A stretch of 64,000 bases of DNA, taken from NCBI GenBank assembly GCA_964016885.1, contig OZ024753.1, positions 13,020,001-13,084,000 of the forward strand, in the 5' to 3' direction. This DNA comes from Eledone cirrhosa. Its lineage: Eukaryota. Made by a program: the position numbers and the translations under genes. Of the stretch, positions 164-59,377 are shown piece by piece. Positions within the stretch are counted from its first letter, which is position 1, and every line of letters starts with the position of its first letter. Under the pieces are notes generated by a model. The model was not told the origin of the DNA, made no database searches, and saw nothing but the letters and a program-made list of their open reading frames with translations.

Positions 164-1153
164 ATGCATAAGATTACAAGTATTGAAGAAGGCCAACACA
201 GTGAAAGCTTGAAAATAAAAGACACGATATTTTTCAAGTTCCTGAAATATTTTTTAGAACATAATTATATGAGATTAAGTGAAATGATATCTTTACTGAA
301 ATCACACACGTTCAAAGCATTGTGTTTGCTAGCTATTTATATTGTGGTCTTTATATATTTGATTCTAAACCCTATTTGCCTCATTGTTAATTTAACAACC
401 TTAAAAGGTATACCTGATGCCAACATGTTTATGTATGGCCTCATTACATTTTGCTATTGTATAATGTCTATCCTATGTTACATGAAATACTTCAAAGAAC
501 CTCATTTCAAGGAGATAATTGAAATATTGTCCAAAATTGAAATTGAAGAGAAAGATGGAAAACTGTACAGTTTCATATATTCATATAAGTCACTTTGTAT
601 ATTTGTAGCCATGTATACTATTTCTATCATAATTGCAGAGCTCATAATACCTATTTTTAGTAAAGACAGTGATCTGTTCGATTTTCTAACATTTCAAATG
701 ACGATGGATTATAAGTACCTCATGGTAATTTTAAAATTTACACTACAAATACTTTCCATTCTACCGCTGGTGATTGATCTGTATATAAGCATTTTACTTC
801 AGCTTGATCTTACTCATGAGTTTAACAAACTGGCCAAGGAGGCTGAAGGGTACGTAAAGGTAATGCAATCCCCCAATCCGGAAGCTATCAAGAAATATGA
901 AGAGATTAAAGAAATATGCAACAGACATGACAAACTGAGTTCATCACTGAGATTATTAAATGATTATTTTCAGTATATTTTAGGATGTCTCGTATTTGGT
1001 AGTATTCTTAGTTGTTGTCTTACAACTTACGGAATAATAAATAACTTATTACAAAATGATACGGATTCATACATTTATGTATTACTTACGACGTTCGGCT
1101 TCCTGTCTTTCTGGATTATACTAGTTTTGTTGGGCCTCCGTTTACATATATCG
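164..1153 (+). CDS. GR/OR-superfamily (gustatory receptor-like) coding exon, copy 1; about TM1-TM6, ends at a splice donor
   Basis: 330 codons with about six hydrophobic segments. EIKEICNRHDKLSSSLRLLNDYFQYIL matches the pattern of the GR/OR (7tm_7-like) helix preceding TM5. TCG|GTAAGT phase-0 donor at 1153/1154; the ORF-track extension to 1216 is probably intron read-through. Confidence 0.75.
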
Positions 1154-1487
1154 GTAAGTCTATATATAAATTTCTGTGATTCTGTCACAACACGTAAAGA
1201 GAGAGGGGTAGTTTGACTACCTCATACTACTCCTCTTTCTTTGCGTCTGATGACTGCGTGAATGTATGTGTGTGTAAAAGGAAGGCAGGAGGTGGTGAAA
1301 CACTATAGTGGTTGGCGTTCCACTTGTTATGCTGTACATGCGTGTATGTTTGTGTGAATGTTAGTGTGTGTGTTTATGTGAATGTATATCTAGATGTGCA
1401 TGTGTGTATGTATTTGTGTGAATGTATGTGTGTGTTTCTGTGAATGTATGTGTGTGTTTGTGCGAATGTATGTGTGTGTTTATGTAA

Positions 1488-2277
1488 AGGAAGATGACAC
1501 CCATGTCATAAGTAGCTCTCCAAAGATGTCATTGCGTTCCTATCTAGCTATTTGGCATGATGTGGTGGCCAAAACACTGTACAATGCAATCTTCAGAAAA
1601 TATAGCCCCGATAATAAACACATTTTAAAAGCTACAGAAATGTGGAAGACATCCATATACATATTATAAAAGGGTACTGGTGGAATGTTCCGGTAAAAAC
1701 CCCAATAAAATGCAGACATAACAGACCAGATATAATTATATGGGACAGGGGAAAGAAGGCATGCACATTAGTGGAAATTAGCTGCCCAGCAGATGCCAAT
1801 ATAATATCAATGATTAGCGAAAAGGGGAATATATATGCAGAACTAATGAGAAATCTGCAGATACTCCATTCTGACTATACCTTCAGATTTATACCTGTGA
1901 TTATTGGGGCACTGAGGTATGTTATTAACTGCCTCAATACAAATCTTGAGAAGCTAGGCTTCACAGGAATAGAAAGAACACAACTAGTTAGGAAAGTACA
2001 AGTACAACCCATTAATGAAACAGTAAAAATATGTAAGACATTCCAAAATGCTGCATCTAATAACCGCATATACAGATACAGATGCAAGTCATATAAACAC
2101 ATACACCTCCACGCGTACAATAACATCTATACCTGCACACATGCACGCATGCATACATGCAGACATATCTACCTAGTTGATGTTGTGTAAATTCCAATGG
2201 GAGAGTCTTGTGTCTATGTTAGAAACCGCCTCTCTCTCTATTGGCAAGAATTTGTGAAATTATAAAACCAGAAAAAC
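1488..2277 (+). mobile_element. 5'-truncated RLE retrotransposon, family B
   Basis: YWWNVPVKTPIKCRHNRPDIIIWD..VEISCP; a different 3' UTR ending TTATAAAACCAGAA(A/G)AAC, followed by ATAC repeats. Confidence 0.85.
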
Positions 2278-2410
2278 ATACATATGTACATACATACACG
2301 CATGCATGCATGCATTTGTACATGCATACATTCATACGTACATACATACATACATACATACATACATACATACATACATACATACATACATACATACATA
2401 CATACACACA

Positions 2411-56247: not shown

Positions 56248-56787
56248 AGATTTTGAGTTTATGTTGGTTGTATACCAACACCTCAGTATGCAGGCTGGAG
56301 CACTCGACGAAGTGCGCAGGTTGGTTTGGTTACTCCGGAGTAGTGTAAAATAAAGTTAAATAAAAGTCAAATGATTAAAATTTAGCTTCGTTTATTACTG
56401 CTATATATATTTCAGTGACAGCCATCTTTGGCTGTGACCTCTTCAGGCAGTTTGAATTAGTATGGTATAGACAAGTACATATGTTGTTTAGGTGTATGAT
56501 ATTGTCAATACTCTGATATGCCCAGTTCCTTGTTGGGTTGTTAATTCACTGGGGAACAGGAGTCATATGACTCCAGTTCCCCAGTGAATTAACAACCCAA
56601 CAAGGAACTGGGCATATCAGAGTATTGACAATATCATACACCTAAACAACATATGTACTTGTCTATACCATACTAATTCAAACTGCCTGAAGAGGTCACA
56701 GCCAAAGATGGCTGTCACTGAAATATATATAGCAGTAATAAACGAAGCTAAATTTTAATCATTTGACTTTTATTTAACTTTATTTTA
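56248..56787. mobile_element. Penelope-type pLTR foldback insertion in (TA)n, with a 442-bp palindrome at 56346-56787
   Basis: Arms mirror around 56566/56567 with no spacer and one mismatch that I noticed; absent from the paralogous position near 50540. Confidence 0.8.
56682..56736 (+). ncRNA. Type I hammerhead ribozyme motif; mirror copy at 56397-56451 on the minus strand
   Basis: ACTGC-CTGAAGA-GGTCACAGCCA AAGA TGGCTGTCACT-GAAA-TATATA-TA-GCAGT; stem I ACTGC/GCAGT, palindromic stem III. Confidence 0.8.
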
Positions 56788-58387
56788 TATATACATATAT
56801 GTATATTAGTATATATATAAGTTGTAACATAATGAAACTAAATTTCATTTCTCACTCTTAGTACGGCACTTACTTAAATGTAAGTATGTATGTATACGTA
56901 CATACATATATGTATACAGACGTACAGTAGCATGCATATATATATATATATATATATATATATATATATATATATATATATATATATATATATATATACA
57001 TACAGGTACACATATATATATGTACGTATCAGTTTAGCGGACGTTTATTATAACGCCCGCTTTGTCCGTTTGTAAACAAGCGGACAGCCTGATTTATGCC
57101 GTACGGTGTTAAGGCAACCACGTCACCTTTTTATTCAACACTGACACAGGAACGATGTACTAGTTTCAAGCTTCTTAGCTATCATCAGCACCGTATACCC
57201 TTCTGCCAGATGGTTGAACGTTCGAAAGTATATACTTTCCTTATGAAAATTAACGGCTGAGCAGCCTAATTTGCATATCGTGTGAGTTCAGTCGGCCAGG
57301 CGTACCGAAAACGATAAGTTGTAATATAATTATATTACAACTTATCGTTTTCTGTACCGAAAACGTGAGAAAAACCACAGACCCTCCATCTCAACTCACC
57401 TTTTGAAAAGCAGAAGAACTGCGAAACCGGTAAAGGAACCAAATAAATATATATATTTTAAAAAAAAATAAGACTTCAGTTGCATTTTTGATTTCATCCC
57501 TTTTTCTATATACATATATATATATATTAGTATATATATATATATATATATATATATATATATATATATATATTAGTATATAAATATATACATATGTATA
57601 TTAGTATATATATATATATATATATATATATATATATATATATATATATATATTAGTATATATATATATATATTAGTATGTATATATATAAATATATGTA
57701 TATATATGCATGTATATGTGTATATATATACATATATATATATATATATACATATACATACATATAGATATATATGTATATATGTGTATATATATATAAT
57801 AAGGGTTGACGGACACAGCATATTTATCAACGCCAGTACCGGTTGTATCTGAGGGCACTCAATGGGCAATGTAAGATACATTACCAGAGTATACACATAG
57901 TTATTTGCCTCAACACAACACACGTAAAACGGGTGCCTATAAGGTTCCTGGACTCGAGTTTCTGCAGCACCAATGCAGTAGTAAGGTGCACTGCACCAGC
58001 TGTCTGCATATATTATGCAACAATGAACAATCAGCTTATGCTGCTTCATCAGCGGGTAACGCCTAATCAATAACCAATCGATCGACATAATCCAAATAAT
58101 ATTCATTTAGATGATACACACAGTGATATGAAGAAAAGCTGTGATGTATATATATATATATATATATATATATATATATATATATATATTTATATATATA
58201 TTTATATATATATACATACATCAAAGCTTTTCTCCATATCACTTGTTCTATCATCTGAATGAATATTATTTGATTACCTAGCAACGATTACACAGCTTAT
58301 CAGGACTTTATCTAGCTTGTCAGCTTTAGCTTCTCGAACGACTAGCAAACACTTAAAGAAATACAGCTCGTCTCTCTGATTTTCGAA

Positions 58388-59377
58388 ATGCATCAGATTA
58401 CAAGTATTGAAGAAGGCCAACACAGTGAAAGCTTGAAAATAAAAGACACGATATTTTTCAAGTTCCTGAAATATTATTTAGAACATAATTACATGAGATT
58501 AACAGGAATGATATCTTTACTGAAATCACACACGTACAAAGCATTGTGTGTGCTAGCTATTTATATTGTGGTCTTTATATATTTGATTCTAAACCCTATT
58601 TGCCTCATTGTTAATTTAACAACCTTAAAAGGTATACCTGATGCCAACATAATTATGTATGTCTACATTGCACTTTACTATTGTATAATGTCTGTCCTAT
58701 GTTTAATGAAATATTTCAAAGAACCTCATTTCAAGGACATAATTGAAATATTCTCCAAAATTGAAATTGAAGAGAAAGATGGAAAACTGTACAGTTTCAT
58801 ATATTCATATAAGTCACTTTGTATATTTTCAGCTGTGTCTAGTATTTCTATCATAATAATAGAGCTCATAATACCTATTTTTAGTAAAGACAGTGATCTG
58901 TTGGATTTTCTAGTATTTCAAATGACGATGGATTATAAGTACCTCATAGTAATTTTAAGATGTACACTACAAATACTTTCCTATCTACCGCTGATAATTG
59001 ATGTGTATATAAGCATTATACTTCAGCTTAATCTTACTCATGAGTTTAACAAACTGGCGAAGGAGGCTGAAGAGTACGTAAAGGTAATGCAATCCCCCAA
59101 TTCGGATGCTATCAAGAAATATGAAGAGATTAAAGAAATATGTAACAGACATGACAAACTGAGTTCATCACTGAGATTATTAAATGATTATTTTCAGTAT
59201 ATTTTAGGATTTCTCGTATTTGGTAGTATTCTTAGTGGTTGTCTTACAACTTACGGAATAATAAATAACTTATTACAAAATGATACGGATTCATACATTT
59301 ATGTATTACCTACGACGTTCAGCTTCCTGTCTTACTGGATTATACTAGTTTTGTTGGGCCTCCGTTTACATATATCG
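58388..59377 (+). CDS. GR-like coding exon, copy 6
   Basis: Intact 990-nt frame, same donor. Confidence 0.75.

Follow-up and report, generated by a model that had tools for sequence, protein, structure and literature searches.

Introduction

Vertebrate clustered protocadherins and the chelicerate 5'-cassette Dscam genes place a series of variable first exons in tandem ahead of constant 3' exons that all of them share. These proteins are adhesion molecules and resemble the subject of this study, a gustatory receptor-like (GRL) locus on C13 (contig OZ024753.1) of Eledone cirrhosa, in exon layout alone. Much closer systems are found among the gustatory receptor (GR) genes of insects. In Drosophila Gr39a, any one of several large exons encoding six transmembrane (TM) segments is spliced to three small exons encoding TM7 and the C terminus, and the large exons are subject to birth and death (PMC2204066). 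In Blattella Gr60a-m, several long first exons lead into three shared short final exons, giving up to 13 isoforms (PMC6175461), and in the beetle Rhyzopertha the same GR arrangement has been called the "canonical pattern" (PMC8956072). The stretch that we analyzed, here called the window, comprises the 64,000 nucleotides of C13:13,020,001-13,084,000 in a 3.0-Gb genome; positions above 64000 continue the window numbering, and subtracting 13,020,000 from a C13 coordinate gives the window position.

Like Gr39a, and also Gr23a and Gr28b, the C13 locus has large TM1-6 exons that each carry a splice donor, no TM7 between them and a shared set of short 3' exons. The original prediction, which was made from the window sequence, had invoked such insect genes with alternative first exons, and the design of Gr39a matches exactly (PMC2204066); for this reason, the cassette design itself is not new. 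However, selection on the four or five large exons of Gr39a is mainly purifying, whereas the C13 locus has 16 large exons (12 intact), an omega of ~2 and introns of 31-261 kb. The Blattella and beetle genes are insect loci, and the number of isoforms at C13 is similar to theirs, not larger. The C13 locus is a molluscan GRL, and nothing we found suggests orthology with the insect Gr39a locus. What is new here is apparently the phylum, the scale of the introns and the diversifying selection. The design was also predicted to be undescribed in mollusks or cephalopods and, in agreement, our literature searches found no such GRL alternative splicing, with the proviso that the main surveys of non-insect GRLs may mention it; the available parts of PMC9840275, PMC11886862, PMC11526382 and PMC6408891 contain nothing on cephalopod GRL splicing.

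In the sources that we drew on, cephalopod chemoreception is ascribed mainly to chemotactile receptors (CRs) and G protein-coupled receptors, and GRLs are given little or no role. The octopus CRs are chemoreceptor channels that have expanded in number and whose pockets contain sites under positive selection (PMC11526382); they are pentameric derivatives of nicotinic acetylcholine receptors encoded by separate genes, and their fold is unrelated to that of the C13 GRL. Here, we suggest, with a probability of roughly 0.8, that the C13 locus is one GRL gene in which 12 intact TM1-6 exons, each likely with its own start, are spliced to a single TM7 set, yielding up to 12 predicted ligand-gated channel subunits. 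In the proposed mechanism, each large exon would act as a first exon with its own start, and its donor would be spliced across 31-261 kb to constant exon a, the first strong acceptor. Because the sister exons contain no strong acceptor, splicing would proceed from each donor straight to exon a. The resulting subunits would have different ligand pockets and the same pore, such that duplicating one exon would add a receptor and leave pore and gating unchanged.

Results and Discussion

Six paralogous exons are present in the window on the + strand, as predicted. Five of these are intact frames of 330 codons, i.e., V1 (164..1153), the first exon of the array, which encodes TM1-6, V2 (18483..19472), V3 (32806..33795), V5 (52329..53318) and V6 (58388..59377), while the fourth, V4 (46814..47716), is broken by deletions of 85 nt and 2 nt. 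All six end at the same TCG|GTAAGT donor, which V4 has kept. V1, V2 and V6 were assigned by Pfam match and donor, V3 and V5 by paralogy and donor. The reading frames that run past the donor in the five intact exons reach 350, 362, 362, 350 and 361 aa, confirming that the read-through tails change frame between copies. These tails derive from a high-copy repeat that begins 7 nt after the donor in V1-V7 (1160..1300, + strand, at V1); the repeat was recognized from the many unrelated contigs that start to match the V1 flank at 1159-1165. The inferred intron of V6 begins at 59378 and occupies the remainder of the window (59378..64000, + strand), and the locus extends beyond the window end.

In the 664 kb surveyed around the window, the array comprises 16 tandem TM1-6 exons, from position 164 to about 261,770, of which V4, V7, V8 and V16 are broken. 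V7 is the 3' third of an exon (C13:13,109,718-13,110,046) and V8 is a divergent exon with one stop (C13:13,113,603-13,114,550). Seven intact exons follow, V9-V15, starting at C13 positions 13,127,031, 13,150,887, 13,161,820, 13,184,233, 13,189,050, 13,215,955 and 13,250,161. The array ends with V16 (C13 about 13,281,119-13,281,770), a divergent exon that is cut before TM5 by a repeat and that is the only one of the 16 without the TCG|GTAAGT donor. Fourteen of the exons form one recent class (class A), and the 12 intact ones are 84-88% identical to V1; by contrast, V8 and V16 are 36% and 30% identical to V1.

The constant exons are found between 262 and 285 kb from the start of the window. A profile search against 1.8 billion representative proteins gave 18 matches, including Octopus sinensis models with a full tail. 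When this tail was compared with the whole E. cirrhosa genome, eight matches were obtained at E up to 10, and three of them make up one intact exon set. Exon a (69 nt; 262184-262252 = C13:13,282,184-13,282,252) and exon b (90 nt; 282335-282424 = C13:13,302,335-13,302,424) are bounded by AG and GT in phase 0, and exon c (51 nt, phase 0; 285276-285326 = C13:13,305,276-13,305,326) reads MIGSFITYILVVIQTK and then a stop. Identity to O. sinensis is 12/23 residues in exon a, 28/30 in exon b and 16/16 in exon c, and exon profiles matched at 262187 (E 0.002), 282335 (1e-18) and 285276 (9e-10). The three exons join all 12 intact large exons in frame and with no stop, giving predicted products of 396-399 aa. 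Thus, the exon layout, the single constant set, the canonical phase-0 splice sites and the in-frame joins are features of the locus itself. The prediction of one shared pore exon downstream was correct in that a single shared copy lies past the window, while the copy consists of three short exons rather than one.

Three lines of evidence support the idea that this set is the only one at the locus. First, blastn with the three exons across the 664 kb returned only the exons themselves, all other matches being ≤17 nt with E of 0.46 or worse. Second, the best other match of the exon profiles inside the array had an E of 0.05 and no splice sites. Third, the claim that the spacers contain no TM7 segment holds for every spacer by both methods. 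Moreover, because V16, the sole large exon adjoining exon a, has neither TM5-6 nor a donor, the intact constant exons must pair with a partner located 31 kb or more upstream. Several candidates and approaches were discarded. An exon-a-like match at C13:13,112,413 has no splice sites. The remaining five tail matches were an exon of a neighboring gene, a degenerate C3 copy, a diverged C29 exon and two weak ones; the C3 copy, which resembles exon b with its flanks (C3:362,901,819), was ruled out as a partner by a stop, a 3-nt deletion and a lost donor, while the GRL exon-b-like exon at C29:40,143 has good splice sites. The C3-type tail was too distant as a query to reveal the C13 constant exons, and regular expressions for the TM7 motif over 464 kb gave noise only; they missed exon c because they demanded QF, QY, QL or QM where the exon ends in QT.

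Could the layout be produced by the assembly, either from complete tandem genes with collapsed TM7 exons or from haplotype copies set in tandem? The exon pairs V2/V3 and V14/V15, separated by a mere 15 and 13 nucleotide changes, would fit such an origin. However, the locus is gap-free, with no N between V1 and exon c, and single contigs span exon b and both of its flanks in runs X1 and X3, with 4 and 0 differences. The contig listed for run X2 matches the degenerate C3 copy, and V1 is covered by many variant contigs. Runs X1-X3 may be from the assembly's own sample, and the four runs examined behave as DNA. Because the same layout also appears in two Octopus annotations, we consider an artefact scarcely credible and retain a single gene with one constant set.

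The named homologs that we found are all from Octopus, where RefSeq calls them "uncharacterized protein". In O. sinensis LOC118764607, isoforms X1 and X3 are identical at 63/140 positions of the variable part and 71/71 of the tail; in O. sinensis LOC118764608, the corresponding values for X1 and X3 are 34/70 and 71/71, and in O. bimaculoides LOC106874590, X1 and X2 share 196/360 and 94/94. The isoforms diverge at the same position as the junction of the C13 locus (LNRS|VHSIT). RefSeq isoforms of this kind generally rest on aligned transcripts. In unspliced homologs from Logan/ENA, the junction is followed by VS or VC in 11/11 checked, as a GT donor would read. Thus, joining of variable to constant parts in Octopus is taken from database models, and we suggest that the E. 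cirrhosa exons would be spliced likewise. LOC118764607, LOC118764608 and LOC106880719 are C13-type loci, and LOC106874590 and LOC118764548 are C3-type. The variable part of the O. sinensis protein P0039 is ~37% identical to V1-V15, while the class-A copies form their own clade (100/100); as judged from these sequences, the class-A exons are a lineage-specific expansion. Two Octopus X2 models, P0037 and P0038 (from O. sinensis and O. bimaculoides), omit the initial 14 residues encoded by constant exon a, a shortening that likely reflects an alternative acceptor.

E. cirrhosa has a second GRL cassette region at C3:69.45-69.88 Mb, whose layout repeats that of the C13 locus and supports the use of several large exons. 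Its three sets of constant exons are arranged in inverted and tandem order, and each lies downstream of large exons on its own strand (5, 5 and 3, some of them broken). The region is homologous to Octopus LOC106874590 and LOC118764548, and O. bimaculoides shows the same layout. A lone further large exon is located at C3:69,065,554.

Membership in the GR and odorant receptor (OR) superfamily was supported at the level of sequence. Pfam 7tm_7 matches all three window exons checked (E 1e-8 to 4e-7, above the cut-off), and the match stops at profile position 288 of 370, whereas the spliced homologs P0040 and P0016 match up to position 367. A search of the ESM Atlas ranked 7tm_7 clusters first (0.96), while a word-index protein search with V1 gave no match. 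The family is marked by three phase-0 introns and by the TM7 motif (PMC9998090). Both the C13 and the C3 loci have three phase-0 introns with AG/GT ends, a likeness to insects in number and phase. The motif TYhhhhhQF is present in exon c as TYILVVIQT, with the final F replaced by T, and outside insects it is only partly kept (PMC9998090).

The predicted fold was borne out for a homolog. A model of P0039, built from a 36-row alignment that includes the window exons, had a predicted local distance difference test score (pLDDT) of 79 and a predicted TM-score (pTM) of 0.76, with low values in the S7 region (pLDDT 38-62). Its helices are as expected of the OR/GR fold, with long S4-S6 and a split S7a/S7b. 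Against OR, Orco and GR structures, Foldseek gave TM-scores up to 0.65 (best E 9e-4), and the model had VIA Z of 20-25 to eight OR/GR/Orco chains, the next unrelated chain being at 8.4. V1 modeled alone from a 14-row alignment had a pLDDT of 48, too low for its fold to be judged, and no structural match. By the P0039 model, the constant exons would provide the end of S6, S7a and the pore helix S7b, while the variable exons would provide the pocket and part of the anchor.

The variable exons evolve with an excess of amino acid changes. Using the 12 intact exons, i.e., leaving out V4, V7, V8 and V16, the nonsynonymous rate (dN) exceeded the synonymous rate (dS) in 64/66 exon pairs. Under three frequency models, M0 gave an omega of 2.0-2.1 (p 1e-5 to 4e-5 against omega=1), and the likelihood ratio test of M2a against M1a gave 100, with 29 sites above 0.95. 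Nonsense changes are absent from the 12 copies, where ~10 would be expected under neutrality. S2-S6 line the ligand pocket in insect GRs (PMC12635824). Of the 29 selected sites, 12 are located among the 14 outermost residues of S2, S3, S4 and S6, which make up 56/330 positions (Fisher p 0.001); this outer-half region is of our own definition, and p is 0.037 with all six helices.

These data also bear on whether only the nearest large exons are spliced, leaving the more distant ones, among them all six window exons, as orphan duplicates, a gene-conversion reservoir or a source of truncated read-through proteins. V1 would require a 261-kb intron past 15 sister exons, and 4/16 exons are broken. 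Also, V9-V15 share a conserved hydrophobic read-through of the same length, 27 residues; across the 134 nt past the donor, just 5 alignment columns vary. In all seven of these exons, 115 nt left over from the end of a V8-type exon, with a second GTAAGT donor, come right after the donor (C13:13,128,021-13,128,135 after V9); a deletion in a V7-V8-like pair is the likely origin of this remnant. However, the distal exons show the same amino acid excess, with dN/dS of 1.7-3.6 in V1 pairs, and mostly about twice the divergence of their spacers: 9/10 window pairs differ by 4.4-6.0% (V2/V3 by 1.5%) compared to 1.2-3.4% for the co-duplicated spacers. Moreover, the window tails are repeat-derived and shift frame, no more than 3/12 exons have AATAAA or ATTAAA at a distance of up to 600 nt from the donor, and TM1-6 alone would be missing the pore helix. 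We therefore regard restriction to the nearest exons as quite improbable and favor use of all 12 intact exons.

Each class-A exon is preceded by a block of ~135 nt that sits behind an AT microsatellite (block at 29..163, + strand, for V1; 13 copies aligned). It is likely a 5' untranslated region or core promoter. While the block predicted upstream of each exon exists, its proposed conservation by constraint was not upheld: over a length of ~135-170 nt, its divergence is 3.7% compared to a dS of 3.5%, and because these values are so close the block is a sign of recent duplication. Promoter choice is suggested by the insect precedent together with the ATG and upstream block of each exon. Because the block is not measurably constrained, some probability, which we judge to be small, is left to a Dscam-like choice in splicing, in which the large exons would be mutually exclusive internal exons behind a shared noncoding 5' leader and one promoter. 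The shortness of the block and an AG ~65 nt before the ATG in 13/13 aligned copies are in its favor. However, a further AG precedes that one by 8 nt, the pyrimidine tract there is weaker than at the acceptors of exons a-c, and every large exon has its own ATG. In a limited comparison of the V1 and V13 flanks with the 424 nt before exon a, docking/selector pairing was not found, complementarity being 7-10 nt against a shuffle maximum of 10-11. Finally, in Gr39a the large exons carry donors, and no acceptor is met before the small exons (PMC2204066). Separate promoters thus remain our preferred explanation.

Several points weigh against one gene with 12 functional variable exons. The splice joints in E. 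cirrhosa are deduced from DNA. The RefSeq isoforms are automated models, which were compared as protein sequences and names, and two X3 models are partial. P0039 has no Pfam match at E 0.1, and P0036 likewise has no 7tm_7 match. The divergence of the upstream blocks is near neutral and gives no sign of constraint, and the conserved read-through tail of V9-V15 complicates the picture. With respect to selection, the 12 exons were picked for intactness, inner support in the exon tree is weak, and the codon model held relative branch lengths fixed. In addition, gene conversion between tandem copies can inflate the results of site models.

If the proposed gene is correct, its subunits would be expected to form tetrameric channels with a chemosensory role, and a recent, positively selected cassette of 12 isoforms would offer a short list of testable receptors whose differences are confined to the ligand-binding half. 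Variable TM1-6 with constant TM7 would then be a design that has appeared again in a second phylum; the ancestral introns probably put it within easy reach of exon duplication. Counts of whole-gene models will undercount such receptors. A broader possibility, which we consider unlikely and offer as speculation, is that octopods have, in addition to the CRs, a second, unrecognized chemoreceptor system of GRL cassettes at two or more loci, independent of insects, with protocadherin-style choice of one or a few variable exons in each sensory cell, isoforms that co-assemble via the shared S7 anchor and pore, and pockets under strong diversifying selection.

Flanking genes and spacers

The array is flanked by two GRL genes upstream and one downstream, each apparently consisting of one large exon followed by its own small-exon candidates; because they carry such candidates, the array is bounded. 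These genes are very divergent and are located at C13:12,971,799, 12,994,193 and 13,366,658. A broken 5' fragment of a class-A exon lies 0.6 Mb downstream on the - strand (C13:13,927,444-13,927,759).

The spacers had been described as almost entirely transposable elements and microsatellites. Repeats do predominate; however, 60-69% of the spacer sequence, as a lower bound, is tandem repeat or repeat seen outside the array, and "almost entirely" is therefore not borne out. The short spacers said to be 5.5-6 kb measure 4.6 and 5.1 kb, the former values being the repeat period. One spacer contains an intact 1,174-codon frame of a non-long terminal repeat retrotransposon (RVT_1, zf-RVT; window 4744-8265), suggesting a recent insertion, and a second copy starts near 63143. 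A Penelope-like element (reverse transcriptase and GIY-YIG) was co-duplicated with units V1-V3 (window about 14.2-17.4, 28.5-31.7 and 42.7-45.7 kb), and all three copies are broken. Tandem minisatellites are present at C13 about 13,401,986-13,403,815 (unit ~31 nt) and 12,966,922-12,968,195 (unit ~65 nt), and several of exons V10-V15 have a 74-nt minisatellite after the donor.

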